A stretch of DNA of 64,000 nt, from the NCBI GenBank assembly GCA_031409655.1, contig JANNXQ010000239.1, positions 1 through 64,000 of the forward strand, written 5' to 3'. Under the pieces are notes generated by a model that saw only the letters and a list, made by a program, of their open reading frames with translations, was not told the origin of the DNA and searched no databases. Of the stretch, positions 9,769 to 36,861 are shown in pieces (within the stretch, counting starts at the first letter, position 1; the number at the start of each line of letters is the position of its first letter). A program made the position numbers and the translations under genes. The stretch comes from Chthoniobacteraceae bacterium (GTDB taxonomy: Bacteria > Verrucomicrobiota > Verrucomicrobiia > Chthoniobacterales > Chthoniobacteraceae).

Positions 9769-9859
9769 AATTAACAATTAGGATTTAGCATTTGTCCCTG
9801 ATTCGCGCGTTAGCGCCTTACTTCCAAATGCTAAATGTTGAATCCTAAATCCTAAATCC
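9769..9859. repeat. Inverted heptamer-array hairpin A (ATTTAGG / CCTAAAT type) between atpD and atpC
   Basis: Left AATTAAC AATTAGG ATTTAGC ATTTG; right CAAAT GCTAAAT GTTGAAT CCTAAAT CCTAAAT; 9783-9794 is the exact reverse complement of 9825-9836. Confidence 0.8.
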
Positions 9860-9861
9860 CG

Positions 9862-10275
9862 ATGGCCACACTCAGACTCGAAATCGTCACTCCTGAAACC
9901 AAGGCTTACAGCGACGACGTGGATATGGTCGTGCTGCCGGCGGTCGAGGGCGAGATGGGCGTGTATCCGATGCATGTTCCCTTGATGACCCAAATTCACC
10001 CCGGCGAACTGACCGTGATGAAAGGTGGTCAGCGCTCCTATCTCGCGGTGGGTGAAGGATTCGTGGAGATCACGCAAACGCGGGTGAGCGTGCTCACGGA
10101 CATGGCGATCGATGAGCAATCGATCGACGAGGGTGCTGCGGAGGCCGCGGTGAAGCGGGCGCAGGAATCCATGGCGAGGAAGGATCTGGGTGGCGAAGAA
10201 GGCGCGGCCGTGCAGGCTGCGCTCGCCAAGTCGCTCGCCCAACTCCACGTCAAACGGCGGCGGCGTGGTCTTTAA
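9862..10275 (+). CDS. atpC: ATP synthase F1 subunit epsilon
   Basis: LEIVTPE, EGEMGVYPMHVPL, GFVEI. Confidence 0.97.
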   Translation: MATLRLEIVTPETKAYSDDVDMVVLPAVEGEMGVYPMHVPLMTQIHPGELTVMKGGQRSYLAVGEGFVEITQTRVSVLTDMAIDEQSIDEGAAEAAVKRAQESMARKDLGGEEGAAVQAALAKSLAQLHVKRRRRGL

Positions 10276-10309
10276 GGTTGGGGGCGGGGCTTTGAGAGCC
10301 TGATCTGAC

Positions 10310-11266
10310 TCAGCGGAGATTCACCCACAGCGTCTGGGCGCATTGGTCGCTCGGGATGTCGGGGAGGGCGGCCTCAAGGTGGATGGCACCCGCTTTCCGG
10401 GTGGCTTTCAGGCCGAATCGCGCAATGGCTTCGAGCGCACGGCGGTTGAGCCGGGTGCAGTTTGTGGAGAGGAGGATGCGGGCCTGGGGCGTGGCGACTT
10501 CAAGAGCGGCGAGGAAGAGGGCTTCGAAGTCCTGCTCCACCTGAAATTTCCGGCCTTTGTGACCCCGAGAGAAAGTCGGTGGATCGAGGATGATGGCGTC
10601 GAATAACTCGCCTTTGCGGCTGAGTCGGGGGAGCACGTCGAGCACATCTTCGGCGAGGAAGCGGTGACCGCTCTCCGTACCGGACGGGATGTTGTTTAAG
10701 GCAAAGTTCTCCCGGCCGCGGTCGAGGGACTTCTTGGAGAGATCAATGCTCACGGTTTCCGCGCCGGCCAAGGCCGCGGCGAGGGAGAAGGAACAGGTGT
10801 AAGCGAAGGTATTGAGCAAGCGCTGGACGCCGCCATTCCGAACCTGAGCGCGGTTGGCTCGTTGATCCAGAAAGAGTCCGGCGGAATATCCGGCGCCGAA
10901 ATCGAGGCCGAAATTCATCCCGTTTTCCGAAACGGTGGTCGTGAGCGGGAGTCCGGTTTCGCCCGACAGAAGTAGAGGCGCGGCGCGTTCGTCATTTTGA
11001 CGCGGCAAAAACTTCCCAAAGACCCGCCGCGGCCGAAAGCCGTGTTCCGCCGACCAAGGGGCAAGCGCCGCGAGAGCATGGTCCCGAGCGGAGTCACTTT
11101 TATAGGAGAGCAGCAGATCCTCGCCGAAGCGCTCGAGCCAGGCTTCGGAGGAGGAAAAGAGCCGGTGGGCATCGGTGCCAGCGGCTTCGAAGGCCGCCAA
11201 TTGGGGGCCGGGAAGCCAGGATTTTGGCAGAGGACGCGAGGGTTCGCGGGGAGGGAATCGGTTCAC
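10310..11266 (-). CDS. RlmI/RlmK-like SAM-dependent rRNA methyltransferase
   Basis: GLFLDQRANR, LLNTFAYTCSFS, FDAIILDPPTFS motifs. Confidence 0.88.
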   Translation of the reverse strand: MNRFPPREPSRPLPKSWLPGPQLAAFEAAGTDAHRLFSSSEAWLERFGEDLLLSYKSDSARDHALAALAPWSAEHGFRPRRVFGKFLPRQNDERAAPLLLSGETGLPLTTTVSENGMNFGLDFGAGYSAGLFLDQRANRAQVRNGGVQRLLNTFAYTCSFSLAAALAGAETVSIDLSKKSLDRGRENFALNNIPSGTESGHRFLAEDVLDVLPRLSRKGELFDAIILDPPTFSRGHKGRKFQVEQDFEALFLAALEVATPQARILLSTNCTRLNRRALEAIARFGLKATRKAGAIHLEAALPDIPSDQCAQTLWVNLR

Positions 11267-11335
11267 GCGCGGCCCAAGAGAACTGATTGCACTGAAAAAT
11301 CAATCAACGTAGTCTCCCCGGCTCTCAAAGACCTT

Positions 11336-13789
11336 ATGCGAAATGTTTCCGCCCTCATCCTCATCGGATGCCTCTGCCTGCTGCAATCCGCGGCGCGCGC
11401 GCAGTCCTCGGCTGATCCGAGCGATCTGTTTCTGAACGTCTATACGGCGGTCCAACAGGCTGAGCGCTCGGAGGGGCAGGGGAACTTCAAGGCGGCGATG
11501 TCGAGGCTGCAGTATGCGGCGAAGGCGCTCGACCAGATCGCGGCCAAGTATCCGACCTGGCAGCCAGTGGTGGTGGAATTTCGCCGGACCGAAACCGGTA
11601 AAGCAATTCAGAGGGTGCAGGAAAAGCTCGCGAAATTTGGGCCGGGTAAAGAGGGGGAGGTGGGTGGAACGGTGGAGCCGGCACTGCCGGTCGATGATAC
11701 GAAGCTTCTCTTTACGCCGCCGGCGGAGGCAGCACCCGCGCCGGTTCCCATGCCGGACAGTCCAGCGGGACAACGGCCGTCCGGAGGGAGCGCGAGTTCA
11801 GGGAATCCGATTCGTGAAATCGAAGATCGGATGGATCGGCTGCAACGGGACCTCGGGAAGGCGCAGGAAGACTTGTCCAAATCGGAGGTGGAAAAGAGGC
11901 GGCTCGCGAAGGAACTCGAAGCGGCGGTGAAGGCCCGTGAGACCTCGGAGAGCAAGCAGCAACTCTTGCAGCAGCGCGCCGATCGCGCGGAGCAGGCGTT
12001 GATGGAGGCACTTTCCAAAGGCGACAATAATTCGGACGCGGTGAAGACGCTGCAAGCGCAGCTCGACAAGGCGAAGCGGCAACTGCGTGACGTGACGATC
12101 GACGGCGAAGCGGAGGCGGAGTTTCGCCAGCAGCTCAGCGATCGGCTAAAGTCTGCGCAGACGAAGATCGTGACTTTGATCGAGCAGCGCGACGCCGCGC
12201 AGAAGCTCACGACAGACACGCCCACGAAGATCGCGGGGATCCAGAAGGAGCTCGATAAGGCGCGGAAGGAAAAGGAAGATGTGCTCGCGCGCCTGACCAA
12301 GACGGAGACGCAACTGGCCGATGTGACCAAGCAGCGCGACGATGCGCTTCAGCAGATCGTGAAGATGAAGGAGGCGCAAAAGCAGGTGGACAAGCTCGTC
12401 GCCGAGAATGCGGACCTCATGACGAAGCTCACGGAGGCCGAGAAGAGCATCAAAGTTTTCAGGGCGGATGGTGTCGAGAAGGACAAGCAGATCGCCTCTC
12501 TCAAGGGCGAACTGGCCGACACGAAGAAGCAGCTTTCCAGCGCCAAGGAGCAGAGCGCCGATTACCAACGGCAGATGGCGGATCTCCAGACCAAGCTCGA
12601 CGAGCGCGGCAAGGAGCTCGCGAAGCTGAAGTCCGACAGCGCTGCCGGGGCCGAAGAGCGGAAGAAGCTGGAGGGCGAAAATCTCATCCTGCGCGGCATC
12701 GTGCTCCGCCAGCAGCGCGAGCAGGCGCGGCGCGACCAGACGCGGAAGCTGGTGCTCGGGGAACTCGCGAAGCTGGAGATCAAATCGAAATCGCTGATCA
12801 GCCAGATCGATTACCTGGGGCAGCCCGTGGTCCAGCTCTCGGCCAAAGAGCGCGCGCTTTTTAAACAGCCCGAACTCCAGATCAGCGACACGGAAATCTC
12901 CGTGGCCGCTGCGCAACCGGATGAACCGACGATGCTCGAAAAGGCCGCGCCGCCTGTGGAAACGCCTGCCGCGGCAAAGTCGGCGCCGATGCCGAAGCCC
13001 GATGATTCGCGGCCCACGCCCAAGCCTGCGGACGAACCGAAGACCACGACGCCGCAGGAAACGCCACCGCTTCCCCCGGTGCCAGCCGAGGAGCCGCCGA
13101 CACAGTTGGCGAAAAATACCGAGCCGACCATGCCGACGAAATCCCCGAGTGGAGATTCATCGGCGGCGAAAAAAACGGCAGATCCCAGCGGACCGACGCC
13201 GCCCGCGCCCGGCACGAGCAACACGCCGAATGTCCCGCCGGAACTCCTGCCGCTCGCGCGTGAAGGCAAGGAGCAGTTTGAACAGGGCAACTACCGCGAC
13301 GCGGAAAAAATCTACGAGCGCGTCCTGGCGAAGGCTCCGAACAATCTCTACATCCTCTCGAATCTCGGGGTCGTTCGCTTCCGCGCGGGCAAGCTGAAAC
13401 TCGCGGAGGAGGCATTGAAAAAGGCGACGCAGATCGCGCCGGAAGACGCCTTCTCCCACACCACGCTGGGCATTGTTTATTACAGCCAAGCCAAGTATGA
13501 CGACGCGGTCAATGAGCTGACGAAAGCCGTCGCCATCCAGCCGAAGAACGCCACTGCGCACAACTACCTCGGCATCACCGCGAGCCAGAAGGGCTGGCAG
13601 GAATCCGCGCAGAAGGAGCTCGAAACCGCCTGCGCGCTCGACCCGACTTATGCGGACGCGCATTTCAATCTTGCCGTCGTCTTCGCCACCCAGACCCCGC
13701 CGAACAAGGAAGAAGCGAAGAAGTATTACAAAAAAGCCATCGAACTCGGGGCCGATCCCGACAGCTCGCTCGAAGGCCTGATCAAGTAA
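11336..13789 (+). CDS. Secreted coiled-coil + Pro-rich linker + C-terminal TPR protein
   Basis: Signal peptide MRNVSALILIGCLCLLQSAARA, long coiled coil, several TPRs (AHNYLGI, AHFNLAV); start set to ATG 11336. Confidence 0.82.
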   Translation: MRNVSALILIGCLCLLQSAARAQSSADPSDLFLNVYTAVQQAERSEGQGNFKAAMSRLQYAAKALDQIAAKYPTWQPVVVEFRRTETGKAIQRVQEKLAKFGPGKEGEVGGTVEPALPVDDTKLLFTPPAEAAPAPVPMPDSPAGQRPSGGSASSGNPIREIEDRMDRLQRDLGKAQEDLSKSEVEKRRLAKELEAAVKARETSESKQQLLQQRADRAEQALMEALSKGDNNSDAVKTLQAQLDKAKRQLRDVTIDGEAEAEFRQQLSDRLKSAQTKIVTLIEQRDAAQKLTTDTPTKIAGIQKELDKARKEKEDVLARLTKTETQLADVTKQRDDALQQIVKMKEAQKQVDKLVAENADLMTKLTEAEKSIKVFRADGVEKDKQIASLKGELADTKKQLSSAKEQSADYQRQMADLQTKLDERGKELAKLKSDSAAGAEERKKLEGENLILRGIVLRQQREQARRDQTRKLVLGELAKLEIKSKSLISQIDYLGQPVVQLSAKERALFKQPELQISDTEISVAAAQPDEPTMLEKAAPPVETPAAAKSAPMPKPDDSRPTPKPADEPKTTTPQETPPLPPVPAEEPPTQLAKNTEPTMPTKSPSGDSSAAKKTADPSGPTPPAPGTSNTPNVPPELLPLAREGKEQFEQGNYRDAEKIYERVLAKAPNNLYILSNLGVVRFRAGKLKLAEEALKKATQIAPEDAFSHTTLGIVYYSQAKYDDAVNELTKAVAIQPKNATAHNYLGITASQKGWQESAQKELETACALDPTYADAHFNLAVVFATQTPPNKEEAKKYYKKAIELGADPDSSLEGLIK

Positions 13790-14423: not shown

Positions 14424-14427
14424 GCCC

Positions 14428-14557
14428 CCGGGAGCGCCGCCGTCCTCGTGCGGCAATCCCCACATCGCGCGCAGCGCCTGAAGATTCGGCTTGGATGCGG
14501 CGAAGTTGGCGCTTCGCGGGTTGTTTGGTTTGCCCCACTGGACGGCTGCGCTCCCGG
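14428..14557. repeat. REPIN/MITE-like palindromic element, family GGGAGCGCCGCCGTCC, copy 1
   Basis: CCGGGAGCGCCGCCGTCC...GGACGGCTGCGCTCCCGG arms with internal CGCGCAGCGCC; homologous to 28688 and 51025. Confidence 0.8.
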
Positions 14558-14608: not shown

Positions 14609-16201
14609 TTGCAAAGCACCCTTACTCGCACCCTTCTCGCCTCGCTTTTTGCGGCGCTCCTCGCTGGCTGCGGGCGGGTGCCGGATCGCGCGGATCTCGT
14701 CTTCATCAATGGCGCTGAATCCGAGCCGCTCGACCCACCGCTGATCACCGCGCAGGCCACGAGCCGCCTCGGTTACGCGGTCTTCGAAGGCCTCACCACC
14801 TTCGACCAAACGGGCACTGCCCAGCCGGGCGTCGCGGAGCGCTGGGAGGTCTCGCCGGACGGCTTGCGCTACACCTTTCATCTCCGCAAAGAGGCCTGCT
14901 GGAGCAATGGCGATCCGATCACGGCGGAGGACTTCGTTTACTCCTGGCGGCGCACAGCATCGCCGGAAACCGCCAGCGAATACGTGGGGCAGCTCCACTA
15001 CATTCGGGGCGTCCGCGACTTCAGCGAAGGCAAGCTCAAGGACTGGAGCGCGTGCGGGGTGAAGGCGCTCGATCCCGCCACGCTCGAGATCACGCTGGAA
15101 AATCCCACCTCGTTTTTCCTCGATCTCTGCGCCTTCTCCACCCTGCTTCCGGTGCATCGCGCGACGGTCGAGAAATACAGCGACTGGTCCACGAACCCTG
15201 CGCATCACATGGGCAACGGCGCCTTCATGCTCAAGGAATGGCGGCTCTTTGATCGCATCCGCATCGTGAAAAATCCGCGCTACTGGAATGCCGCCAAAGT
15301 CGCGCTGCAGAGTGTCGATGTCCTCCCGGCCGGCCGGCCGATGACGGCCTTCAATCTCTACGCCACCGGCGTCGCCGATCTCATGATGGACAAAGGCCTC
15401 GCGCCGACTTCGCTGATGCATGAGTTGAAGAAGCGCCCCGATTTCCACGCCGCACCTTTCCTCGGAAACTACTTCTTCCGCTTTAATTGCTCGCGAAAGC
15501 CTTTCAATGATTCGCGCGTGCGTCGCGCTTTCTGCCTGGCAGTGGACCGGGCGCACCTCACCGAATCCATCAGCCGCGCTGGGGAAGTGCCGGCTACGAG
15601 CTTTGTGCCGCCGGGGGCGGGCGGCGGATATCAGCCGCCGCCTGGTTACGAGCGTGATCCGGATCTGGCGAGAAAACTCCTCGCTGAAGCGGGCTTTCCG
15701 GGCGGCAAAGGCTTCCCGCTTTTCGCCTATCTCTACCGCGCGGATTCCGAACTCGATCAAGACATCGCCGTCGAACTCCAGGGCATCTTTCAGCGTGAAC
15801 TCGGCGTGAACATGCAACTCACCCGGCAGGAATGGACCGTGTATCTGAACACGCAGGTCGCGCTCGACTACGACCTCTGCCGCTCGTCGTGGGTCGGCGA
15901 TTACAACGATCCGAATACCTTCCTCGACATGTTCATCACCGACGGCGGCAATAACCGCACAGGATGGAGCCATAAGGAATACGACGCCTTCATCACCGCG
16001 GCCGGGCGCGAAGTGGACAATGCGAAACGCTTCGAGATCTTCCGGCAGGCGGAGAAAATCCTCGTCACTGACGAAGCGCCGATCTGCCCTCTCTACTATT
16101 ACGTCGGCATCCAATTCTACGACCCCGAGCGCCTCGGCGGCATCGAGCCCAACCTGCTCGACGAGCATCCGCTCAAGGCGATGTATTGGAAAAAGCGCTG
16201 A
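14609..16201 (+). CDS. Peptide ABC transporter substrate-binding lipoprotein (OppA family)
   Basis: Lipobox LLAGC; PGVAERWEVSPDGLRYTFHLRK; WVGDYNDPNTFLDMF. Confidence 0.92.
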   Translation: MQSTLTRTLLASLFAALLAGCGRVPDRADLVFINGAESEPLDPPLITAQATSRLGYAVFEGLTTFDQTGTAQPGVAERWEVSPDGLRYTFHLRKEACWSNGDPITAEDFVYSWRRTASPETASEYVGQLHYIRGVRDFSEGKLKDWSACGVKALDPATLEITLENPTSFFLDLCAFSTLLPVHRATVEKYSDWSTNPAHHMGNGAFMLKEWRLFDRIRIVKNPRYWNAAKVALQSVDVLPAGRPMTAFNLYATGVADLMMDKGLAPTSLMHELKKRPDFHAAPFLGNYFFRFNCSRKPFNDSRVRRAFCLAVDRAHLTESISRAGEVPATSFVPPGAGGGYQPPPGYERDPDLARKLLAEAGFPGGKGFPLFAYLYRADSELDQDIAVELQGIFQRELGVNMQLTRQEWTVYLNTQVALDYDLCRSSWVGDYNDPNTFLDMFITDGGNNRTGWSHKEYDAFITAAGREVDNAKRFEIFRQAEKILVTDEAPICPLYYYVGIQFYDPERLGGIEPNLLDEHPLKAMYWKKR

Positions 16202-16296
16202 TGCCAGTCACGGTGATGCGTGTATGGGAAGCGGATCGGCAGCTTGCCAAAGCGCCGGGCAAAAAAATTGCGCACCCATCTCGTTTCGCGGCGCAG

Positions 16297-16331
16297 CCGC
16301 TTTGGAGTGCGGCGCGTCCTCGCGCCGCTTT
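16297..16331. repeat. Solitary REP-like palindrome (TTTGGAGTGCGGCGCG-TCCT-CGCGCCGCTTT)
   Basis: GC-rich hairpin with GGAGTG foot in an intergenic spacer; single copy in this window. Confidence 0.5.
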
Positions 16332-16373
16332 ATTCACGCGGCCGCCAGTCAACGGTGCTCTGGCTCACGCGTG

Positions 16374-18386
16374 ATGGACCGCCTCGCCTACATTCTCTAC
16401 CGGATCGTTTCCGCGGTGATCCGCGCGCTCCCGCTGGCCGCCGGCTACAGGTGCGGCTACGCGCTCGGCACAGTGGCGTGGCACCTCGCGCTGCCCTATC
16501 GCCGGCTCGTCCGGGAGAATCTCCGCATCGCCTTTGGCCAGGAAAAATCGGAGTCGGAAACCGAAACGATCGCAAAGGCGCACTTCGCCATGCTCGGCGC
16601 GAATCTCTTCGCGAGCCTCAAGCTGCCAACCCTTTCTCGTGCGGAGATTGAAAGCGTCGTCACTGTCGAAGGCCTCGATCACATGGACGCTCAGATCGCC
16701 GCGCGCGGCGGTTTTGTCTTCGTCATCAGCCACATCGGAAACTGGGAAATGTTCGCCCAGCTCACGCCCTACATTTTCAAGTGCAAGACCGGCACGATCT
16801 ATCAGCGACTCGGGAATCCGTATCTCGATGCGGAAGTGCGCCGCTCGCGGGCCCGGCTCGGCATGGAGCTTTTCGAGCGGAAAGAGGGCTTCGTCGCTGC
16901 TTCCAAATTTCTGCGCGAAGGTGGAGCCGTCGGAGTGCTCGTCGATCAGCACGCAGGCGATGCCGGGCTGTGGTGTCCATTTTTCCGACGCCTCGCCTCG
17001 ACCAGCACGCTGGCCGCCACGCTCGGGCTGCGCACCGGCGCAAAGCTGATTCCTGCCGCGGTGTACAATGATGGCGCCGCCCGCTGGCGCATCGTCCTCC
17101 AGGCGCCGATGCCCACCAAGGACGCGACCGCCGAGTCGATCACCGTGCGGATCAACGAAGTCCTCGAAGCGCAAATCCGCCTGCAGCCCGAGGACTGGTT
17201 CTGGGTTCACAACCGTTGGAAAACACCGCGCCCGAAGTTTCTCCTGGCGACTTACAAGCGCGGGGTGGCCGGGGTAACTGATGTGCATAGTGACTCGGGA
17301 ATCGTAGATGGAGGCGGAGTGTCCGCACCCGATTCACCATTCACCAGTCACGATTCACTCTCCCCCTTCCGCATCTTGATTCGCGCGAGCAACTGGCTCG
17401 GCGACGCGGTGATGACTGTGCCCGCGGTGCGCGCCATCAAGGCCGGACGGCCCGATGCGCGCGTCACGATTCTTACGCAGGAGAAGCTTGCCGACTTTTG
17501 GCGAAGTGTCGCCGAGGTGGAGGAAGTCATCGGCATCGCCGCGGCAGAGACGGTCTTTGACGTTGCGCGCAAGCTGCGGGGAAAATTTGACGTCGCGATC
17601 CTTTTCCCAAACTCGTTGCGCACCGCCCTGGAAGTGTGGCTCGCTGGCATTCCCCGCCGCGTCGGCTCCCCGGGCCATCACCGCACTCGGCTGCTCAATC
17701 AGGTCTTCATCCCGAAGCGAAAGACCCCGGTGCCACGGCCTCGCCATCAGGTTCACGACTACCTCGCACTTGCCGAGTTCGTCGGCGCTGAAGTGAATGG
17801 TGACTTGGGAATCGTGAATGGGCGCGTGCCTTCCATCCACCAATCACCAGTCACCATTCACGACTGTCGCCCCCCCACCATCGGCCTCTGCGCTGGAGCC
17901 GAGTACGGTCCCACGAAACGCTGGATGCCCGAGCGTTTCGCCGAAGTCGTGAGCGCCGTCCGCGCTCGCACCGGCTGCGAGTGGAAGCTCTTCGGCGTCG
18001 ATAGGGATCTCCCGATCACGGACCAAATCCTGATGGCAGCAGGTGGCCCGCTGCGCTCGTTCGTAGGGCAGACCACGCTCGCCCAACTCATGGATGAACT
18101 GCGCACCTGCGACCTCCTCCTGACCAATGACACCGGCAGCATGCACCTCGCCGCGCACCTCGGCGTGCCGACCGTCGCGCTCTTCGGCTCCACCGAGCCG
18201 TCGCTCACCGGCCCGCTCGGCCCTGGCCATCGCATCGTGCGCCATCACGTCGATTGCAGTCCGTGCTTCCTGCGCGAGTGCCCGCGCGATTTTCGCTGCA
18301 TGAAGGCGATCACGTCGAGCGAGGTGATCGTCGCCGTCGAAAACGCACTCCGCGAAAAGACGGTTATTGGTTCCTTCGCATCGTGA
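16374..18386 (+). CDS. Fused lipid A late acyltransferase (LpxL-like) + LPS heptosyltransferase II (WaaF, GT9)
   Basis: N-domain SHIGNWE, LVDQHAG, DWFWVHNRWK; C-domain NWLGDAVM, GAEYGPTKRW, TNDTGSMHLAA; one uninterrupted ORF. Confidence 0.9.
   Translation: MDRLAYILYRIVSAVIRALPLAAGYRCGYALGTVAWHLALPYRRLVRENLRIAFGQEKSESETETIAKAHFAMLGANLFASLKLPTLSRAEIESVVTVEGLDHMDAQIAARGGFVFVISHIGNWEMFAQLTPYIFKCKTGTIYQRLGNPYLDAEVRRSRARLGMELFERKEGFVAASKFLREGGAVGVLVDQHAGDAGLWCPFFRRLASTSTLAATLGLRTGAKLIPAAVYNDGAARWRIVLQAPMPTKDATAESITVRINEVLEAQIRLQPEDWFWVHNRWKTPRPKFLLATYKRGVAGVTDVHSDSGIVDGGGVSAPDSPFTSHDSLSPFRILIRASNWLGDAVMTVPAVRAIKAGRPDARVTILTQEKLADFWRSVAEVEEVIGIAAAETVFDVARKLRGKFDVAILFPNSLRTALEVWLAGIPRRVGSPGHHRTRLLNQVFIPKRKTPVPRPRHQVHDYLALAEFVGAEVNGDLGIVNGRVPSIHQSPVTIHDCRPPTIGLCAGAEYGPTKRWMPERFAEVVSAVRARTGCEWKLFGVDRDLPITDQILMAAGGPLRSFVGQTTLAQLMDELRTCDLLLTNDTGSMHLAAHLGVPTVALFGSTEPSLTGPLGPGHRIVRHHVDCSPCFLRECPRDFRCMKAITSSEVIVAVENALREKTVIGSFAS
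17283..17358. repeat. Inverted heptamer-array hairpin B (GTGAATG / CATTCAC type), in-frame in the LpxL-WaaF linker
   Basis: GTGCATA GTGACTC GGGAATC GTAGATG ... GATTCAC CATTCAC CAGTCAC GATTCAC. Confidence 0.85.
17793..17861. repeat. Inverted heptamer-array hairpin C, in-frame in the WaaF inter-domain linker
   Basis: GTGAATG GTGACTT GGGAATC GTGAATG ... CATCCAC CAATCAC CAGTCAC CATTCAC. Confidence 0.88.
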
Positions 18387-18446: not shown

Positions 18447-19433
18447 ATGTCCCAAACCCAGGAACTCACCGACAAAGTCAAAGCCCAGAGCCATTGGATC
18501 AAACCGTTGCAGGATGAAATCTCCCGCGTCGTCGTGGGGCAGCGCTACCTTGTGGATGGGCTGCTCGTCGGCTTGCTCACGAATGGGCATATCCTGCTGG
18601 AAGGCGTGCCGGGGCTGGCGAAGACGCTGACCGTCAAGACGCTGGCGAACTGCATCAATACGGGATTCAGCCGCCTCCAGTTCACGCCCGATCTGCTGCC
18701 GGCGGATCTCATCGGCACGCTCATCTACAATCCGCGCAGCGGGGAATTCACGACAAAGAAGGGGCCGCTCTTTTCCAATCTCATCCTTGCGGATGAGATC
18801 AACCGCGCGCCGGCCAAGGTGCAGAGCGCGCTGCTCGAGGCGATGCAGGAGCGGCAGGTGACGATCGGCGATACCACGTATCCGCTGCCCGATCCCTTCC
18901 TCGTCCTCGCGACGCAAAATCCGCTCGAACAAGAGGGCACCTACCAGCTCCCCGAAGCGCAGCTCGACCGCTTCATGCTCAAGCTCAAGGTCGGCTACCC
19001 GAGCAAATCCGAGGAGCGGCAGATCCTCGACCTGATGGCTACGAGCGCACCGAATCTCAAGGTGCTGCCGATGCTCGATCCGGCGGACATTCTCCGCTCC
19101 CGCGAACTGGTGAACTCGATCTACGTGGATGATCGGGTGAAGGATTACATCGTGGATGTGGTCTTCGCGACGCGTGATCCGAAAGCTTACAAGCTCAAGC
19201 TCGAAGGCATGATCCGCTACGGCGCGAGCCCGCGCGCGACGATCAATCTCACCCTCGCCGCCCGCGCCCGCGCCTTCATGGCGGGCCGCGGCTACGTGAC
19301 GCCGCAGGATATCAAGAGCGTGGGACCGGATGTGCTCCGCCACCGCATCATCGTCAGCTACGAAGCGGAAGCGGAGGAGGTGACGAGCGAGCAGATTATC
19401 GAGACCATCTTTAATGGGCTGGCGGTGCCGTGA
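18447..19433 (+). CDS. moxR: MoxR-family AAA+ ATPase
   Basis: LLEGVPGLAKT, RLQFTPDLLPAD, DEINRAPAKVQSALLEAMQERQVT, GASPRA. Confidence 0.96.
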   Translation: MSQTQELTDKVKAQSHWIKPLQDEISRVVVGQRYLVDGLLVGLLTNGHILLEGVPGLAKTLTVKTLANCINTGFSRLQFTPDLLPADLIGTLIYNPRSGEFTTKKGPLFSNLILADEINRAPAKVQSALLEAMQERQVTIGDTTYPLPDPFLVLATQNPLEQEGTYQLPEAQLDRFMLKLKVGYPSKSEERQILDLMATSAPNLKVLPMLDPADILRSRELVNSIYVDDRVKDYIVDVVFATRDPKAYKLKLEGMIRYGASPRATINLTLAARARAFMAGRGYVTPQDIKSVGPDVLRHRIIVSYEAEAEEVTSEQIIETIFNGLAVP

Positions 19434-19444: not shown

Positions 19445-19926
19445 GTGATTGGTGATCGGTGAATGGTGATTGGTATGGCCGTTGCAAAATCGTTTCGTGA
19501 CTTGAATGTCTACCGCCTTGCGCGGGAAGCGGCGCAGGAGGTTTTTCGCGTTTCCAAGGCGTTTCCAAAGGAGGAGCGGTTTTCGCTCACGGATCAGATT
19601 CGGCGCAGCTCGCGAGCGGTGAATGCCATGATCGCCGAAGCCTGGGCGCGGCGGCGCTACAAGGCGGCATTCATCAACAAGATCGACGAGGCCCTAGGGG
19701 AAGCGATGGAGACGCAGGCGTGGCTAGACCATGCTCTGGATGCCGAATACCTGACGCAGCAGAATTTTGCGAAGCTGGATGCAAATTGTCGTTCCGTCAG
19801 TGCCATGCTCGCGCGCATGATCGATCGCGCTGCGGACTTCTGCAAAAACGCATCGGATACGGACTACCGCGCGCTGGCGGCAGGCGACGCTGAACCACCA
19901 ATCACCACTCACTAATCACCAATCAC
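19445..19926. mobile_element. Putative inserted element D: four-helix-bundle gene bracketed by inverted 4x7-bp arrays
   Basis: Left 19445-19472 GTGATTG GTGATCG GTGAATG GTGATTG; right 19899-19926 CAATCAC CACTCAC TAATCAC CAATCAC; separates moxR and DUF58, which are usually adjacent. Mobility is inferred. Confidence 0.6.
19475..19915 (+). CDS. Four helix bundle protein (23S rRNA intervening-sequence protein family)
   Basis: SFRDLNVYR, FPKEERFSLTDQIRRSSRAV, IAEAW, EAMETQAWL motifs; alternative ATG at 19463. Confidence 0.93.
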   Translation: MAVAKSFRDLNVYRLAREAAQEVFRVSKAFPKEERFSLTDQIRRSSRAVNAMIAEAWARRRYKAAFINKIDEALGEAMETQAWLDHALDAEYLTQQNFAKLDANCRSVSAMLARMIDRAADFCKNASDTDYRALAAGDAEPPITTH

Positions 19927-19934: not shown

Positions 19935-20837
19935 ATGGAATCCGCCCGCGAAATCCTGAAGAAGATCCGCCGCCTCGAGCTGAAAACTCGCGGGATGGTC
20001 GAGGCTGCTTTCGCGGGGCAGTATCGCAGCGTCTTCAAGGGACGCGGGATGAACTTTGATGAGGTGCGCGAGTATCAGCCGGGGGATGAAGTGCGGACGA
20101 TTGATTGGAATGTGACGGCGCGCCTCGGCGAGGTGCGCGGCGAGGCTTACGTGAAAAAGTTCACCGAAGAGCGCGAGCTCACGGTGATGCTCATCGTCGA
20201 TGTGAGCGCGTCGGGGGATTTCGGGAGCGTGAATCTGAGCAAGCGCGAACTGGCCGCGGAAGTGGCGTGTCTGCTGGCCTTCAGCGCCATTCGCAATAAC
20301 GACAAAGTCGGGCTCTTACTTTTTTCGGATCATGTCGAACTCTTCATCGCTCCGAAAAAAGGCCGCATTCACACGCTCCGGCTCATTCGCGAGATTTTAT
20401 TCTTCGAGCCGGAAGGGCGGGGGACCGAGCCGGCGCTCGCACTCGATTTCCTGAACCGGGTCCTGCATCGCCGTTCCGTGGTATTCCTGATCTCGGATTT
20501 TCAGGCACCCGATTTTTCCAAGCAGCTCGCGATCACCGGACGGCGGCACGACTTGATCGCCATCCCGATCGTCGATCCGCGCGAGGAGGAGTTGCCCGAT
20601 GTCGGACGCGTGACCTTTGAGGACGCGGAGACCGGGGAGCAGATCGAAATAAATACTTCCGACCGGCTGACCCGGCTGAGGTATGAGCAAACTTTCGGCA
20701 TGCTGGCCGATGACCGCATGCGCGATTTCCGGCGCAAGCGCGTCGATACGATTTCGCTCAAGACCGACGTGGATTACCTCCCGGCCTTGCGTAATTTTTT
20801 CCGCGTCCGCGAACGGAGGCTCCAGCTCCGCGCATGA
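19935..20837 (+). CDS. DUF58 protein (MoxR-associated)
   Basis: FKGRGMNFDEVREYQPGDEVRTIDWNVTAR, VDVSAS, VFLISDF. Confidence 0.95.
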   Translation: MESAREILKKIRRLELKTRGMVEAAFAGQYRSVFKGRGMNFDEVREYQPGDEVRTIDWNVTARLGEVRGEAYVKKFTEERELTVMLIVDVSASGDFGSVNLSKRELAAEVACLLAFSAIRNNDKVGLLLFSDHVELFIAPKKGRIHTLRLIREILFFEPEGRGTEPALALDFLNRVLHRRSVVFLISDFQAPDFSKQLAITGRRHDLIAIPIVDPREEELPDVGRVTFEDAETGEQIEINTSDRLTRLRYEQTFGMLADDRMRDFRRKRVDTISLKTDVDYLPALRNFFRVRERRLQLRA

Positions 20838-21388
20838 TCGCCGCCCTTTCGACCCCGCCGCCAGCCCCTCCGGCTCCGCCGACTGGACCCTTCCCGCCAG
20901 AGCCGCCGGATCTCCGCGACATCGCACCACCCGTGGATGTCTTTCCGTGGCCGACCTGGATGGTCGTAGTCGCGGCCATTGTCGTGCTGCTCCTGCTGGC
21001 GGCCCTCGTCTATTTCATAGTGCGCTGGATTCGAAACCGCCCGCCACCGATCCCTCCGAGCCCGCAGTCCATTGCCTTGCGCGAGCTGCGGAAGCTGCAA
21101 CCCCAGACGGCGCGCACCGAGCCGCACGAGTTCACCTTCGCCGTCTCCGATGTCCTGCGCACGTATGTCAGCGCCGAGTATCGAGTGCGCGCCACCGAGC
21201 AGACCTCGCCGGAGTTCCTTGCCGTCATCGGCCAGTCGGTAAAGTTCGCCGACGCCGAGCGCACCCTGCTCGCGGACTTCCTCGAGCGTTGCGACCTCAT
21301 CAAGTTTGCCCGCATCGACGCGGATTCGACGGACAATGAACGTCTGCTCGAAAGCGCGCTGCGTTTCGTGGAAGGAGGCCGGGCGTGA
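20834..21388 (+). CDS. Single-TM Bat-operon accessory protein (DUF4381-like)
   Basis: LRDIAPP followed by a TM helix; EQTSPEFL and CDLIKFA motifs; operon position. Confidence 0.8.
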   Translation: MIAALSTPPPAPPAPPTGPFPPEPPDLRDIAPPVDVFPWPTWMVVVAAIVVLLLLAALVYFIVRWIRNRPPPIPPSPQSIALRELRKLQPQTARTEPHEFTFAVSDVLRTYVSAEYRVRATEQTSPEFLAVIGQSVKFADAERTLLADFLERCDLIKFARIDADSTDNERLLESALRFVEGGRA

Positions 21389-22404
21389 ACAATCTGAAGT
21401 TCGACTCATTTTCATTCGCCCAGCCGTGGTGGCTTTTGCTCCTCCTCCTGGTGCCGCTCCTCGCCTTTTTGAAAGGCGGGCGCGGGGCGGCGCCGGCGGT
21501 GGTCTTCTCTTCTTTGCGGCCGATGCACGGGGTGGGGAAGGTGCGGAAATCGCGCGCGGGCGGGTGGCTGGCGAGTTTGCTCCTGCTCGGGCTGGCGCTG
21601 CTGCTCGCGGCCTTGGCGCGGCCGCAGATGGGGAAGACGCTGAGCCGGGTGGAGGCGAGTGGGATCGATGTGATCCTGGCGCTGGATGTCTCGCGCTCGA
21701 TGTTTGCGGAGGATTTCATCATCGGCGGGCAGCGGGCAAATCGTCTCGATGCGGTGAAGCAGGTGACGCAAAAATTCATCGAAGGCCGCCCGCATGATCG
21801 GATCGGGATCGTGTGCTTTGCCGGTCGTCCGTATCTCGTGAGCCCGCTGACGCTGGATCACGATTGGCTGCTGCAAAATTTGGAGCGCATCCGCATCGGG
21901 CTCGTGGAAGATGGCACGGCGATCGGGTCGGCGATCGCCTCGGCGTCGAATCGCCTGAAGGACCGCGAGTCGAAGAGCAAGATCATCGTGCTGCTGACGG
22001 ACGGCGATAACAACGCGGGGAAGGTGCCGCCGCCCACGGCGGCGGAGGCGGCGGCGGCGCTGGGGATCAAGATCTACACGATCGGCGCGGGTACGCGTGG
22101 CTATGCGCCGATCCCGGTCCAGGACGCTTTCGGTCGCACGGTGTATCGGAACATCAAAGTCGAGGTGAACGAACCGATGCTGAAAGAGATCGCGACGAAG
22201 GCGAATGGGCAATTTTACCGAGCGACGGATGCGGAATCGCTGGAGCGGATCTACAGCGAGATCGATCAACTGGAAAAATCGACGGTCGAGCTCAGCCAGT
22301 ACAAACAGTATCGCGAACTCTTCCCGTGGTTTGTGGCGGCGGGGCTGGCGGCGCTGGCGCTCGGTGCGGTCTTGGGGGAGACGGTGTGGAGGCGGCTACC
22401 ATGA
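21385..22404 (+). CDS. batA: VWA domain protein BatA
   Basis: FAQPWWL, ALARPQ, MIDAS DVSRSM, SPLTLDH, GTAIG, LLTDGDNNAG. Confidence 0.93.
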   Translation: MNNLKFDSFSFAQPWWLLLLLLVPLLAFLKGGRGAAPAVVFSSLRPMHGVGKVRKSRAGGWLASLLLLGLALLLAALARPQMGKTLSRVEASGIDVILALDVSRSMFAEDFIIGGQRANRLDAVKQVTQKFIEGRPHDRIGIVCFAGRPYLVSPLTLDHDWLLQNLERIRIGLVEDGTAIGSAIASASNRLKDRESKSKIIVLLTDGDNNAGKVPPPTAAEAAAALGIKIYTIGAGTRGYAPIPVQDAFGRTVYRNIKVEVNEPMLKEIATKANGQFYRATDAESLERIYSEIDQLEKSTVELSQYKQYRELFPWFVAAGLAALALGAVLGETVWRRLP

Positions 22405-22544
22405 GGAAAATGGGGAACGCCAAACTTCAAACTTCAAACTTCAAACGCCAAACGAATCTGTCTGGACGCTTGGACCGACGTTTGGCGTTTGAAGTTTGGC
22501 GTTTGAAGTTTGGCGTTCATGGGGCAGCGAGGAGGTTCATCTGA
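22401..22544 (+). CDS. 47-aa repeat-derived mini-ORF bridging the batA stop and batB start
   Basis: ATG overlaps batA TGA (ATGA); its own TGA overlaps batB ATG (TGATG); MRKMGNAKLQTSNFKRQTNLSGRLDRRLAFEVWRLKFGVHGAARRFI. Translation not shown. Confidence 0.5.
   Translation: MRKMGNAKLQTSNFKRQTNLSGRLDRRLAFEVWRLKFGVHGAARRFI
22416..22517. repeat. Inverted heptamer-array hairpin E (AACTTCA/AACGCCA type); 39-bp arms, 24-nt loop
   Basis: 22416-22454 vs 22479-22517 are reverse complements at 37 of 39 positions. Confidence 0.95.
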
Positions 22545-33437: not shown

Positions 33438-33444
33438 CCGGACG

Positions 33445-34017
33445 ATGACGACCTTGGAGAAAGCCACCGCGGATGCCGTCGCGACCCTGCAAGGCCTCGC
33501 CTCACTCAGCGCCACGATCGAGCGCGCCGCCGTGCTCATGGGCGAGTGCCTGACCCGCGGGGGCAAGCTCCTGGTGTGCGGCAATGGAGGCAGCGCCGCG
33601 GATGGCGCGGATTTCGCCACGGAGTTCACCTGCCGGTTTTCGCGAGATCGCCAGCCGTATCCGGCGATCAATCTCGCGGCCTGCGGCAGCGCGCTCACGG
33701 CAATCGGGAACGACTACGGCTTCGAGCAGGTCTTCGCGCGGCAGGTTCGGGCTTTTGCGCAACGCGGCGACGTGCTCGTGGCCGTCACGACGAGTGGCAA
33801 CTCGGCCAATATTCTCGCCGCCCTCACGACTGCGCGGGAACTCGGGATCACGAGCATCGCCCTCCTCGGAGGCACTGGCGGCAAAGCCGTCGGACTGGCC
33901 GCGCTGGAACTCATCGTGCCGACCACCAGCACCGCGCGCATCCAGGAGGGGCACAAATTCCTTTTTCACGTCCTCTGCGAAATGATCGATGAAAGCTGGC
34001 TGCTCGCGCGCGGCTAA
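33445..34017 (+). CDS. gmhA: Phosphoheptose isomerase (SIS domain)
   Basis: CGNGGSAAD, TAIGNDYGFEQVFARQV, TSGNSAN, TARIQEGH. Confidence 0.93.
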   Translation: MTTLEKATADAVATLQGLASLSATIERAAVLMGECLTRGGKLLVCGNGGSAADGADFATEFTCRFSRDRQPYPAINLAACGSALTAIGNDYGFEQVFARQVRAFAQRGDVLVAVTTSGNSANILAALTTARELGITSIALLGGTGGKAVGLAALELIVPTTSTARIQEGHKFLFHVLCEMIDESWLLARG

Positions 34018-34052
34018 TGCGCAACTCCGCACCCGCTCGCCAAGTCCATCCA

Positions 34053-34081
34053 TTGACAAAGGCCACCCCGGTTTCGATACT
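34053..34081 (+). promoter_or_regulatory. Putative sigma70 promoter (near-leaderless)
   Basis: TTGACA-17 nt-GATACT, ending 9 nt before ATG 34091. Confidence 0.5.
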
Positions 34082-34090
34082 GCGCACACG

Positions 34091-34840
34091 ATGAGTCTCG
34101 ACCTGAATGACCTGCTCCGGGATTGGCCGCACGAGCCTGGAATGCTGAAAGTTCGGCGAATTCTCGGCACTGACGGTAAGGAGAAAATTCAACTGCGCAT
34201 CGATCTGGGGCTCATTCAGATGGAGACCGCAGGGCGCCCTGACGGACAGCGTCCGCACAACTGCGAGAGCCTGCTCGAGTGGCATCTCGGCCGGTCGCGT
34301 CGGGCGGAAAAGAAGAGCGACACCTACACCCTTTCCGCCGAAGAAGTGGGCGATGTGCAGCAGGAAGGCATCCAGTATTACCACCGCTACATCTCGCTCT
34401 TTCAGCTCGGCGATTTCTCCGGCGTGATGCGCGATACCCAGCGGAATCTGGACATGTTCGACTTCGTGGCCGCGCACGCGCCGGAGGAGCTTTCCGGGTC
34501 CGTGGAGCAGTTCACACCCTACGTGCTGATGATGAATACGCGGGCCAAAGCCTCGATCGAGATCGAGCGCGAGGAGTTTGCCGGCGCGGTGCGGGTGATC
34601 GAACGGGGGATGGGAAAGATCCGCGCCTTCTACGACAAGAACGGCGGGCCGGAGGCGGCCACGTCCAGTCCAGAACTCGGCTTTCTGAGCGAGTGGCTCG
34701 ATGAAGTGAAAGGCAAGCAGCCCGTCTCGAAGCTGGAGAAGATGCAGCGTGAGATGGATAACGCCATCGCGGCGGAGGCTTACGAAAAAGCCGCGGAATT
34801 GCGGGATGCCATTCGGCGAATCACGACCCGTAAGTCGTGA
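34091..34840 (+). CDS. UvrB/UvrC-motif-containing protein
   Basis: QLRIDLGLIQMETAGRPDGQRP N-domain; C-terminal AIAAEAYEKAAELRDAI UVR motif. Confidence 0.85.
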   Translation: MSLDLNDLLRDWPHEPGMLKVRRILGTDGKEKIQLRIDLGLIQMETAGRPDGQRPHNCESLLEWHLGRSRRAEKKSDTYTLSAEEVGDVQQEGIQYYHRYISLFQLGDFSGVMRDTQRNLDMFDFVAAHAPEELSGSVEQFTPYVLMMNTRAKASIEIEREEFAGAVRVIERGMGKIRAFYDKNGGPEAATSSPELGFLSEWLDEVKGKQPVSKLEKMQREMDNAIAAEAYEKAAELRDAIRRITTRKS

Positions 34841-36861
34841 TCCGACGGCCGACTTCAACCGCCAAACTTCAACCGCCAAACTGCAAAGGGCGGGACGAAA
34901 TGTGGGCTTCACATTTTGTGTTTCGCGTTTGGTGTTTGGCGTTTGCCGTTCTCCTTTTTGCCGGCTGCGGCAATGACCCGAATCCTGAGCCCCTCCACAA
35001 GACTCGCGCCGACGGCAAACCTTGGGTGACGAGGTATGCTGGGTTGACTGAAGACCCGCGCTCCTTTGATCCGCAGTTCTCGTATGATCAGATGAGCCGG
35101 CGCGTGCTCGAAGCGGTGTACGACACGCTGCTCGAGTATCACCCGATGAAAACGGATCCTTACGAGGTCCGGCCGGCGCTGCTTGCGGACCTGCCGGTGA
35201 AGGAGGTCTCCGCCGAGGGCAAGATCAGCTACCTCTGCCGGCTGAAGACTTCCGCTCGCTTCCACGATGATGTTTGTTTCCCCGGAGGCAAAGGTCGTCA
35301 GGTCGTGGCGGGCGACGTTCTCTACGGCTTCCAGCGGCTTTGCGATCCGAAGGTCGAGTCGCCCTTCCTTTCCAATCTCGCGGAATACATTCCCGGCTTG
35401 CAGCAAGCGCACGACGCCGCGGAAAAGAGCGGCACTTTCGACTACGCCGCCATACTCCCTGGTATTGAAGTTCTGGATGCGCAGAGTTTCCGTATCCATC
35501 TGACCAAGCCGTATCCCCAGCTCAGCTACTGGCTGGCGATGCACTGCACCACGCCGGTCGCGCGCGAAGCGGTCGAATACTACGATGGCAAGGAGCACGA
35601 TGGGGTGGTGCGGCCCGACTTCCACAAATTTTACGCCGTCGGCACTGGTCCTTACCGCGTTCGCGAATACACCCCGCGGCAGCGGGTGCGCCTGGAGCGG
35701 GTGGAAGGTTACGCCACCACGACTTTCCCGAGTGACGGTTTTCCGCCGGAGAAAGCCGCGTGGCTGCAGCAGTTTGCCGGCAAACCATTACCCCTCTCGG
35801 ATGAAGTCAACCTCGCCATCATCCGCGAAAACATCCCCATCTTCATCCTCACGCGGCAGGGTTATCTCGATGGCATGGCGGTCAATAAGGATGCCTTTAA
35901 CGCCATGCTCACGCCGACCCGCGAACTGGCACCCAAGTACAAGCAGCGCGGGATGTTTCTGGAGAAAGATATCGAACCCAGCACCTTCTGGATCAGCTTC
36001 AATATGGAAGACCCGATCGTGGGGCAGAATAAGAAGCTGCGCCAGGCGCTCTCCTGCTCCTACGATGCGCAGACTTACTCGGATATCTTCTATAGTTCCG
36101 TCGCGCCCGTCGCGGAGCAACTGATCCCGCCCGGCCTCTTCGGCTTCGATCACGCCTGGCGCAATCCCTACGGGCACGATCCCGAGCGTGCGAAACGCCT
36201 GCTGGCCGAGGCTGGCTATCCAGGAGGACGCGATGCCAGTGGGAAGCAACTCGAACTGACGCTCGATTGCGCCGCGGTCGGCAGCGAAGACCGGCAGCGC
36301 GTGGAGTTCGTGCAGCGCGGCATGGAGCGACTCGGAGTGAAGGTCCGCGTCATTGAAAACACCTTCGCCCATCTTTTGCGGAAACAGGACACCGGTGACT
36401 TCCAGATGGCCGACGGCACCGGCTGGGGCGCGGACTATCCCGATCCAGAGAATTTCTTCTTCCTCCTCTACTCGAAGAATGTGCCCCCGGCCGGCAAGAA
36501 CATCAGCCGCTTTCGCAATCCGGAGTTCGACCGGCTCTTTGAGCAAATGGCCACCATGGAAAACGGTCCCGAAAGGCTGGCGATTGTGCAACAGATCACG
36601 ACGCTGGTCGGAGAGGAGGTCCCGCAGATCCTCAATTTTCACAAAGCCTTTTACAGCACGGTGCAGCCTTGGGCTCCGCGGACGCACAATAACTTGATGC
36701 TGGAAGGCGGCTTGAGGTTTCTCACCATCGACCCCGTGTTGCGGGAGAAATTACGCGGTGAGTGGAATCGCCGGCCACTTTGGCCACTGGCGCTCCTTGG
36801 CGTCCTGCTTGCCGCGGCGATCGGCTACGCGGTGCGTTGGAATCGGAGGATGAATGCTTAA
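34837..36861 (+). CDS. Peptide/nickel-family ABC substrate-binding lipoprotein with C-terminal TM helix
   Basis: Lipobox LFAGC; VGTGPY, GWGADYPDPENFFFLLY; C-terminal hydrophobic helix; start GTG 34837 or ATG 34900. Confidence 0.88.
   Translation: MIRRPTSTAKLQPPNCKGRDEMWASHFVFRVWCLAFAVLLFAGCGNDPNPEPLHKTRADGKPWVTRYAGLTEDPRSFDPQFSYDQMSRRVLEAVYDTLLEYHPMKTDPYEVRPALLADLPVKEVSAEGKISYLCRLKTSARFHDDVCFPGGKGRQVVAGDVLYGFQRLCDPKVESPFLSNLAEYIPGLQQAHDAAEKSGTFDYAAILPGIEVLDAQSFRIHLTKPYPQLSYWLAMHCTTPVAREAVEYYDGKEHDGVVRPDFHKFYAVGTGPYRVREYTPRQRVRLERVEGYATTTFPSDGFPPEKAAWLQQFAGKPLPLSDEVNLAIIRENIPIFILTRQGYLDGMAVNKDAFNAMLTPTRELAPKYKQRGMFLEKDIEPSTFWISFNMEDPIVGQNKKLRQALSCSYDAQTYSDIFYSSVAPVAEQLIPPGLFGFDHAWRNPYGHDPERAKRLLAEAGYPGGRDASGKQLELTLDCAAVGSEDRQRVEFVQRGMERLGVKVRVIENTFAHLLRKQDTGDFQMADGTGWGADYPDPENFFFLLYSKNVPPAGKNISRFRNPEFDRLFEQMATMENGPERLAIVQQITTLVGEEVPQILNFHKAFYSTVQPWAPRTHNNLMLEGGLRFLTIDPVLREKLRGEWNRRPLWPLALLGVLLAAAIGYAVRWNRRMNA
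34851..34950. repeat. Inverted heptamer-array hairpin F (same family as E) overlapping the signal-peptide coding region
   Basis: GACTTCA ACCGCCA AACTTCA ACCGCCA AACTGCA ... TTGTGTT TCGCGTT TGGTGTT TGGCGTT TGCCGTT. Confidence 0.85.

Follow-up and report, generated by a model that had tools for sequence, protein, structure and literature searches.

In a Chthoniobacteraceae genome, genes for a four-helix-bundle (FHB) protein are bracketed by inverted arms of short tandem repeats, a pattern indicative of a repeat system that is gained and lost at gene junctions and has no dedicated enzyme. The window analysed here comprises 64,000 nucleotides of contig JANNXQ010000239.1, in which a first-pass annotation had reported six hairpin elements; a check of the sequence confirmed all six, in position and in heptamer type (Table 1). 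They share one design, mirror-image runs of 4-5 tandem 7-base repeats with a spacer between them, and all lie in or between protein genes, none in an rRNA gene. In element D the spacer is, as had been claimed, a whole FHB gene, whose reading frame matches PF05635 and TIGR02436 and whose stop codon lies inside the 3' arm. Hairpin folding of elements A, B, C, E and F gave z values of -2.9 to -12.7, and in D the arms form the closing stem of the predicted fold (z -2.9). Contigs of runs X1 and X2, which are perhaps those of the source study and not independent, span element D with zero differences, so that D is no assembly artefact.

Element B lies in the linker that joins the lipid A acyltransferase and heptosyltransferase domains of a fusion ORF, and element F lies not between genes but within the 5' end of an ORF for an ABC substrate-binding lipoprotein (SBP_bac_5), where its 3' arm, judged from the translation, would encode the hydrophobic part of a putative signal peptide. 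The arms of B, C and D had been described as identical; they share one family but differ, and the left arm of B is degenerate. Elements A, E and F belong to families other than that of D. B, C and D lie close together, as do two elements on contig C47 of the same genome.

Table 1 Hairpin elements of the window and the genes around them
Feature	Position	Strand	Remarks
Element A	9769..9859	.	gene-less hairpin, ATTTAGG/ATTTAGC family; fills atpD-atpC junction
atpD	8356-9765		flanks element A
atpC	9862-10275		flanks element A
Element B	17283..17358	+	gene-less hairpin in frame, GTGA-W/C-TG family
Fusion ORF	16020-18386		contains element B
Element C	17793..17861	+	gene-less hairpin in frame, GTGA-W/C-TG family; within GT9 heptosyltransferase domain
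moxR	18447-19433		neighbour of element D
Element D, 5' arm	19445..19474	+	four GTGA(T/A)(T/C)G units; abuts FHB start codon
Element D, FHB gene	19475..19915	+	PF05635/TIGR02436, 146 aa
Element D, 3' arm	19896..19926	-	inverted array; ends 8 nt upstream of DUF58 start codon
DUF58 gene	19935-20837		neighbour of element D
batA-like vWA gene	21385-22404		flanks element E
Element E	22416..22517	.	gene-less hairpin, AAACGCC/AAACTTC family
batB-like vWA gene	start 22544		flanks element E
SBP_bac_5 ORF	34837-36861		contains element F
Element F	34851..34950	+	degenerate hairpin, AAACGCC family; read in frame

Profile searches assigned the D protein to PF05635 (E 2e-30, 105.5 bits, cut-off 33.8) and TIGR02436 (94.6 bits, cut-off 24). 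Its structure model (pLDDT 97) matches 2RLD and 2GSC, each with five chains, at a TM of about 0.9, and XCC0516 has been described as a homopentamer (PMC4990558). Structure comparison also agrees with the earlier statement that the fold is shared with Avd, the accessory protein of diversity-generating retroelements (DGRs): TM values against 4DWL and 8UB7 were 0.82-0.84, at only 8-10% identity. In Avd, five protomers hold the RNA, whose bases are flipped out into crevices of the protein (bioRxiv 2023.10.23.563531), and by likeness to its solved relatives the D protein would likewise be a homopentamer. In DGRs, however, the Avd gene accompanies a reverse transcriptase (RT) and template/variable repeats, whereas the D protein scores below the cut-off of the Avd family model (27 against 80 bits) and no PF00078 match was found in this assembly, which is 95% complete. 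The FHB protein retains 82% amino acid identity where synonymous sites are saturated, and is therefore under strong purifying selection.

The enrichment beside FHB genes that the first-pass annotation had proposed to look for is strong. By eye, all ten PF05635/TIGR02436 genes of this genome carry arms. In a survey of 367 FHB loci from many phyla, 17 of which were left out for incomplete flanks or scores below 30 bits, arms were found at 261 of the remaining 350, whereas among 150 equally sized control genes one had them; direct-orientation and cross-locus controls gave 11/150 and 12/150. Plasmid FHB loci of cyanobacteria and Gemmatirosa had arrays on both sides in six of eight cases (by eye). 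Among 458 cross-phylum pairs of FHB proteins at least 60% identical, the similarity of the repeat units was 0.70 (ceiling 0.81, baseline 0.47), and only 0.29 of their fourfold-degenerate sites were identical; a spot check gave 0.25-0.45 in comparisons with more than 30 sites. The repeat unit thus follows the FHB protein across phyla while synonymous sites are saturated. Gene-bearing and gene-less elements are members of one design, as had been supposed, with a strong tie to FHB genes, but they are not one family, since every heptamer type is associated with an FHB clade of its own. Two family patterns occur patchily among 31 genomes and are absent from all eight that lack a PF05635 hit, profiles that overstate the case because related genomes are not independent. 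No exactly matching FHB gene was found in this 95%-complete assembly for the large families AAACGCC, GAGAGTT and GATTTCA.

A genome-wide scan for inverted period-7 arrays, likewise suggested beforehand, revealed a large excess over other periods. Tandem arrays numbered 502 at period 7 against 45 at period 5 and 53 at period 8, and 147 of 750 period-7 arrays had a reverse-complement partner within 150 nt, compared with 1 direct, 0 reversed and 19 complement-only partners. A relaxed scan returned 223 period-7 pairs, a figure that is approximate because the scan overlooked element F and mispaired B with C, against 6, 25, 28, 39, 3 and 1 at periods 5, 6, 8, 9, 10 and 11. We estimate about 150-220 inverted pairs in at least ten repeat families, the arrays being mostly paired as inverted doublets with a spacer, with roughly 20 gene-less hairpins per gene-bearing cassette. 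Arm size is narrowly distributed: 324 of 414 arms have 4-6 units and only 16 have more than six. In some clades the unit is 6 or 8 bases long instead of 7, and the median number of full units per arm is 5 for 6-mers and 4 for both 7-mers and 8-mers.

Alignment to relatives, from which empty sites and exact ends had been expected, yielded the first and not the second. Each of the six sites is without an element in some relatives, and five of them carry another heptamer family in others; neither exact insertion ends nor a target duplication could be fixed from the relatives compared, because divergence among them is too great and strain-level variants did not turn up. The moxR-DUF58 gap measures 12 nt in genome G001, whose moxR is 94.8% identical, and in 19 of 28 relatives it does not exceed 68 nt; it holds an orthologous cassette in G002 and apparent decayed hairpins in G011 and G029 despite no PF05635 hit in the latter two. 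The atpD-atpC junction shows five unit types in 7 genomes and is shorter than 40 nt in 17 of 28. Turnover at B, C, E and F is similar: site B spans 168 nt from anchor to anchor here, while 22 of 24 relatives have 93-117 nt, site C has arrays of four families in 6 of the 12 relatives having both anchors, and at site E the batA-like and batB-like genes overlap (ATGA/GTGA) in 5 of 16 relatives and are separated by different heptamer families in three others. Filled alleles at E show the 4-nt stop/start overlap on both sides, which a target duplication and selection for intact genes would alike give, and lone 3' arms are retained at several orthologous sites. Presence is patchy, and the same stop/start junctions and protein linkers have been repeatedly re-occupied by different families. 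Empty alleles, association with FHB genes and arrays in excess of controls, on whose absence the original proposal would have foundered, were all found. Among the joints listed in sequencing-run DNA contigs (85% likeness), none removes exactly one element, and one across A with 33 other letters is probably the atp junction of another organism.

The placement of the elements is not random with respect to genes. Of 145 co-directional elements, 94 begin no more than 15 nt from a stop codon, convergent junctions are under-used (11 seen, 28-30 expected), and nine of the ten FHB genes are co-oriented with both neighbours. Distances to start codons are approximate, since the gene caller used here places starts imprecisely. 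About nine true copies lie mid-gene and in frame. The idea that the elements are tolerated by staying translatable was borne out at B and C, where all measured alleles are in frame and the sole unit whose TGA would be in frame is altered in both.

The 3' part of element A matches the 3' end of the FHB cassette G000:C47:38672 in 55 of 62 columns, inner flank included, and this inner flank is also retained in a second element, C47:36978. Most spacers, however, are no remnants of known cassettes (mean score 10.75 against 10.28 for shuffled sequences), and simple deletion as the source of the empties was rejected, only 12 versus 7 of 198 spacers scoring at least 13 against cassette inner flanks. 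Nor are spacers copies of each other, with 7 similar pairs among the 198, unlike MITEs and non-autonomous IS elements, whose copies are near-identical including the inner sequence; such unique spacers fit recent clonal amplification poorly. Local hopping was rejected as well, since neighbouring elements are not significantly of the same family (P 0.77, 0.36 and 0.09). Neither an RT nor any other mobility enzyme turned up in the cassettes, and RT-driven spread was dismissed because no PF00078 match was obtained in this genome or in G001, the domain being present in three of five genomes. Phage carriage was likewise rejected, no match being found in the phage collection searched; two weak viral contigs turned up.

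The nearly unique spacers and the single arms could also be read as a mutational by-product, with slippage, template switching and gene conversion giving rise to arrays in spacers that tolerate them and homogenising these, while FHB genes only hitch-hike between such arrays. An arm with a stop codon could not have been inserted in frame into an essential gene at a single stroke (B and C needed a change), and the arm-gene-arm-spacer-arm layout of locus L140 (by eye, among the loci listed) suggests recombination between arms. We nevertheless give this account little probability: it does not account for the lack of arms at other, equally sized genes (1/150), for the way in which the unit follows the protein across phyla or for the sharp drop in arm sizes above six units.

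A role in RNA processing through stem pairing, which had been put forward for the elements, has so far gained no support. In the transcribed orientation G·U pairs are as frequent as A·C mismatches (148 against 153; 56 against 53 elements), cognate arms show no pairing advantage over arms exchanged between members of a family (six families, P 0.08-1.0), and perfect units are equally frequent in 5' and 3' arms (2.41 and 2.58, P 0.33); together these results give no sign of selection on RNA pairing. They weigh against the view that the elements are intervening sequences (IVS) of mRNA, with the hairpin serving excision by RNase III and the protein as passenger or excision helper. The same anatomy does occur in the RNase III-excised Coxiella IVS (PMC4990558), whose GACAGAT unit is carried by a D-clade relative (L242, 52% identity; by eye, among the loci listed), and all six elements can fold. 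Cutting without re-ligation would, however, break the in-frame elements B, C and F, and lone 3' arms persist at several orthologous sites; we regard this view as quite improbable.

A host-serving post-transcriptional regulon, in which the FHB pentamer would be an RNA-binding regulator and the arrays its operators, is in our judgement unlikely, if less far-fetched. TRAP offers the analogy for such a pentamer. Arrays kept at translation starts would tune coupling or initiation, and the FHB gene would be autoregulated by its own 5' arm, which in D ends at the ATG. Arms adjoin starts and stops, the co-orientation of FHB genes and the strong purifying selection on the protein would fit, and regulator sites have been proposed for Geobacter and Beggiatoa (PMC2700814, PMC4679880). 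Against it, core junctions change family or lose the element among close kin, which is unexpected for a conserved regulon, 5' and 3' arms are equally faithful and thus show no strand asymmetry, and some copies lie mid-gene in frame.

The reading that we favour, at somewhat better than even confidence, is that the elements are REPIN-like small selfish or commensal cassettes whose pentameric FHB protein binds its own arms, the 23S rRNA IVS being one case. Each cassette consists of an FHB gene between two inverted arms of 4-5 units specific to the protein's clade. The protein would form a homopentameric ring like its solved relatives and bind one arm in single-stranded form, with about one repeat unit to each subunit, and this recognition may keep the arms true to type. 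In this way a few gene-bearing copies would sustain many gene-less ones, much as RAYTs sustain REPINs. As no recognisable catalyst is encoded in the cassette, spread may take place at the DNA level by host enzymes, conceivably by recombination or repair at protein-bound hairpins; gene-less hairpins might stem from gene loss and in some cases from copying of empties. Tolerance could come from the folded stem bringing upstream stop and downstream start together or, alternatively, from stop-free arms translated as flexible linkers. A bolder version, offered tentatively and with more doubt than belief, is that of a categorically new self-propagating element. A ring of five subunits, itself non-catalytic, would read five tandem 6-8-mers with clade-diversified specificity and, through host enzymes, write hairpins into stop/start junctions and protein linkers, or move them there, in many phyla. 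The long-unexplained bacterial heptamer repeats and ORF-bearing rRNA IVS would then share it as their origin, and it would provide a natural family of re-targetable single-strand binders.

Like REPIN/RAYT systems, the elements comprise many gene-less inverted doublets that fall into several families within a genome, every family being linked to a single protein gene flanked by the same repeats (PMC3116915). REPIN arms are single REP palindromes, whereas those described here are tandem 7-mer arrays with the gene inside the hairpin loop, and the RAYT is a Y1/HUH tyrosine transposase, whereas PF05635 is an all-helical Avd-like bundle with no Y1/HUH match; the 13 separate PF01797 hits of this genome lie at places other than the cognate FHB gene. 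ORF-bearing 23S rRNA IVS resemble D in carrying a PF05635 gene in a stem of terminal inverted repeats, and they too are patchy and horizontally spread (PMC4990558). In Coxiella burnetii, tandem GACAGAT heptamers, taken as a local feature, stand right before the S23p start codon of an IVS that RNase III excises from RNA (PMC4990558). The cassettes reported here instead sit in mRNA operons and protein genes, and are outnumbered about 20:1 by gene-less copies. Dispersed arrays of 4-5 tandem 7- or 8-mers, often in inverted pairs near stops and starts and sometimes inside genes, are described for Geobacter metallireducens (paired heptamers/octamers; PMC2700814), Xanthomonas and Nostoc (GGGAATC, 70 inverted pairs in Xcc; PMC4692102) and Beggiatoaceae (TAACTGA; PMC4679880). 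Unlike here, they are interpreted there as regulator sites or G-quadruplexes, and the passages and term searches consulted show no link to S23/FHB genes. The pieces are thus published separately, the Coxiella IVS heptamers on one side and the paired arrays of Geobacter and Xanthomonas on the other, and the general link between heptamer arrays and FHB genes was not found in the literature searched. The cyanobacterial STRR heptamers and small dispersed repeats are also dispersed tandem heptamers, described to our knowledge without a cognate protein; cyanobacterial FHB genes carry heptamer arms in our survey.

The link would connect two questions of long standing, what the widespread PF05635 proteins do and where dispersed heptamer repeats come from, and would open both to test by a straightforward binding assay. 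Core operons, including those for ATP synthase and LPS synthesis, are reshaped by the elements, which by adding linkers and putative signal-peptide segments are a source of protein sequence and also lead to miscalled starts. Should every clade read a unit of its own, the FHB family would be a natural library of sequence-specific ring binders. Mutual information over 181 dereplicated 7-mer loci revealed no single-residue code (best z 3.7), and 82 disjoint neighbour pairs gave a best partial r of 0.28 (P = 0.55), results that do not disprove a code because the units were phased automatically and imperfectly. In the code test, five of the eight highest-ranking columns lie where helix 3 begins, a pattern no more than suggestive.

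Tandem arrays in the genome were about tenfold more frequent at period 7 (502) than at period 5 (45) or period 8 (53), and a strict scan yielded 155 inverted period-7 pairs, a relaxed scan 223 inverted pairs at period 7 against 1–39 at other periods. Among 750 arrays for which a partner was sought within 150 nt, 147 had a reverse-complementary partner, one a direct partner, and none a reversed one. The arrays, comprising at least ten unit families, form a real, non-random, genome-wide system. A reading of the repeats as a mutational by-product is quite improbable. Elements were located at co-directional (145), divergent (52) and convergent (11) gene junctions and inside genes (10, including one mispairing of B with C); convergent junctions were used less than expected, and in 94 of the 145 co-directional cases a stop codon lay within 15 nt of the element start. 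That the elements constitute a host regulon seems unlikely to us.

The six inverted-heptamer hairpins of the window, A to F, were found as the first-pass annotation had described them, and computed folding gave hairpins. The loop of D is a four-helix-bundle (FHB) gene (PF05635/TIGR02436; 146 aa) that starts directly after the 5' arm and stops inside the 3' arm, and the nearest named kin of its product are in Chthoniobacter MAGs, at the same site, which makes a verrucomicrobial host probable. In the gene-less elements B and C, the unit whose TGA would otherwise be read in frame is altered in both. The fusion that hosts these two is a single open frame in most relatives searched, and at the F site of one relative (G003) another heptamer family fills the same signal-peptide role.

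Location of the window elements and of related features (G000, this assembly; C, contig)
Feature	Coordinates	Location or content	Basis
A		atpD-atpC junction	Pfam
B + C		In frame in lipid A acyltransferase–heptosyltransferase fusion	Pfam
D		moxR/DUF58 gene interval	Pfam
E		Amid batA-like and batB-like genes	Pfam
F		Start of ABC substrate-binding lipoprotein gene	Pfam
Fusion ORF	window 16020-18386	Single ORF joining lipid A acyltransferase to heptosyltransferase II	
Interval with 3' arm of F	window 34837-34970	3' arm codes hydrophobic core of putative lipoprotein signal peptide	
Indel-rich interval	window about 14440-14465	secG/first ABC binding-protein gene interval	
Nested hairpins	G000:C8:14573-14700	Two families, one within the other	
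Shared-spacer hairpins, set 1	G000:C4:13079, C127:87252, C195:93703		
Shared-spacer hairpins, set 2	G000:C39:39235, C289:45678		

The proposed association of inverted period-7 arrays with FHB genes held well beyond the window. An inverted-array score of 15 was reached by 261 of 350 FHB loci with full flanks (from relatives, a phylum sample, and GTDB and metagenome hits), against 1/150 size-matched genes, 11/150 direct-orientation and 12/150 cross-locus controls. Units at the 212 loci scoring at least 18 were mostly 7-mers (175), followed by 8-mers (24), 6-mers (12) and one 9-mer. Inspection by eye showed inverted arrays bracketing all ten FHB genes of this genome, hexamer arrays at one of them; nine of the ten are co-oriented with both neighbours, and a custom-built profile search of the genome found no others. 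Unit similarity rose with protein identity, from 3.3 of 7 below 50% to 5.3 at 70–85%. Across 458 cross-phylum pairs, which share ancestry and are not independent, units remained alike (0.70, ceiling 0.81) while fourfold-degenerate sites were at chance (0.29), which means that the arms are constrained jointly with the protein. No residue-level protein-to-unit code was resolved in the FHB loci, and three large families of the genome have no exactly matching FHB gene.

The fold of the D protein matches solved relatives 2RLD and 2GSC (five chains each) and the DGR accessory protein Avd, for which RNA binding has been described (bioRxiv 2023.10.23.563531). Arms contained 4–6 units, partial units included, in 324 of 414 cases, a range whose lower end is partly set by the detection threshold; more units were rare, and the median number of full units was five for 6-mers and four for 7-mers and 8-mers. 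These lengths would fit a five-subunit ring in which each subunit reads one unit of a single strand. The Coxiella IVS has three tandem heptamers ahead of its S23p ORF and terminal inverted repeats, and is excised by RNase III (PMC4990558). The system here has the anatomy of ORF-bearing rRNA IVSs but does not belong among them, and that its elements are RNase III-excised mRNA inserts is the least probable of the readings weighed. The arms showed neither G·U excess nor compensatory pairing, and 5' and 3' arms were equal in fidelity, which argues that they act as two independent consensus matches, not as a selected RNA stem. This negative evidence on RNA-pairing selection is new from the locus, as is the repeated turnover of families at the same core-operon sites.

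Empty alleles, anticipated by the first-pass annotation, were seen at every one of the six sites in some relatives. Between moxR and the DUF58 gene, G001 has a gap of 12 nt, G002 the orthologous cassette and G003 an unrelated repeat; in 19 of 28 relatives this interval does not exceed 68 nt. The atpD–atpC interval is occupied by five unit types across 7 genomes and is shorter than 40 nt in 17/28 relatives. G001 is without B, and the C site carries four families across 6/12 relatives, in frame every time. The genes flanking E overlap in 5/16 relatives, with other families in three; at F, the lipoprotein gene is next in 5/16 relatives, with another family in one, a decayed copy in one and no element in three. 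Such differing occupancy shows that the same sites have been filled, emptied and refilled. Two family patterns, each present in 8/31 genomes, were absent from all 8 genomes without a PF05635 match, although two of these 8 have apparent decayed hairpins at moxR–DUF58. Unrelated inserts at this junction in other genomes (REP-like palindromes and small ORFs; L003, L010, L017, L007, L024) mark it as a general insertion hot spot.

Empties appear to arise through gene loss as well as through duplication of other empties, since A and a second empty element retain inner-flank sequence from a cassette that has its gene, and a few spacers, most being unique, are common to several empties. We marginally favor a REPIN-like selfish cassette in which the FHB protein would recognize the arms without catalysis and the host would supply the chemistry; no mobility enzyme was recognized in the cassettes and no reverse transcriptase in the assembly. 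The system works like REPIN/RAYT (REPINs are defined in PMC3116915) but is not a member. Dispersed 4–5-unit arrays, often paired, have been reported (PMC2700814, PMC4692102, PMC4679880), in main texts that gave no matches for S23 or helix-bundle terms, and no paper that ties FHB genes in general to heptamer arms was found among open-licence papers and bioRxiv preprints.

Several further observations were made. The shared-spacer gene-less hairpins form a small MITE-like subfamily. At locus L140 (G003:C269:5700-6830), an FHB gene between two arms is followed by a spacer and an inverted arm, an arrangement that recombination of the gene into an empty hairpin, or next to one, might have produced. 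Several cassettes of one clade (G000:C63, C66, C179; L133, L136, L143) seem, on visual inspection of the DNA around them, to be set among restriction-modification-like genes, possibly a route of horizontal spread. Several contigs of G007, another genome, give 24 reverse-transcriptase matches, most scoring identically, which probably reflect a recent burst of group II introns. Aligned contigs show raised depth and many indels in the indel-rich interval, suggesting another dispersed repeat. An Anabaena plasmid (L457, NC_019429.1) carries an FHB gene with decayed repeats in its cas6/cas4 interval.
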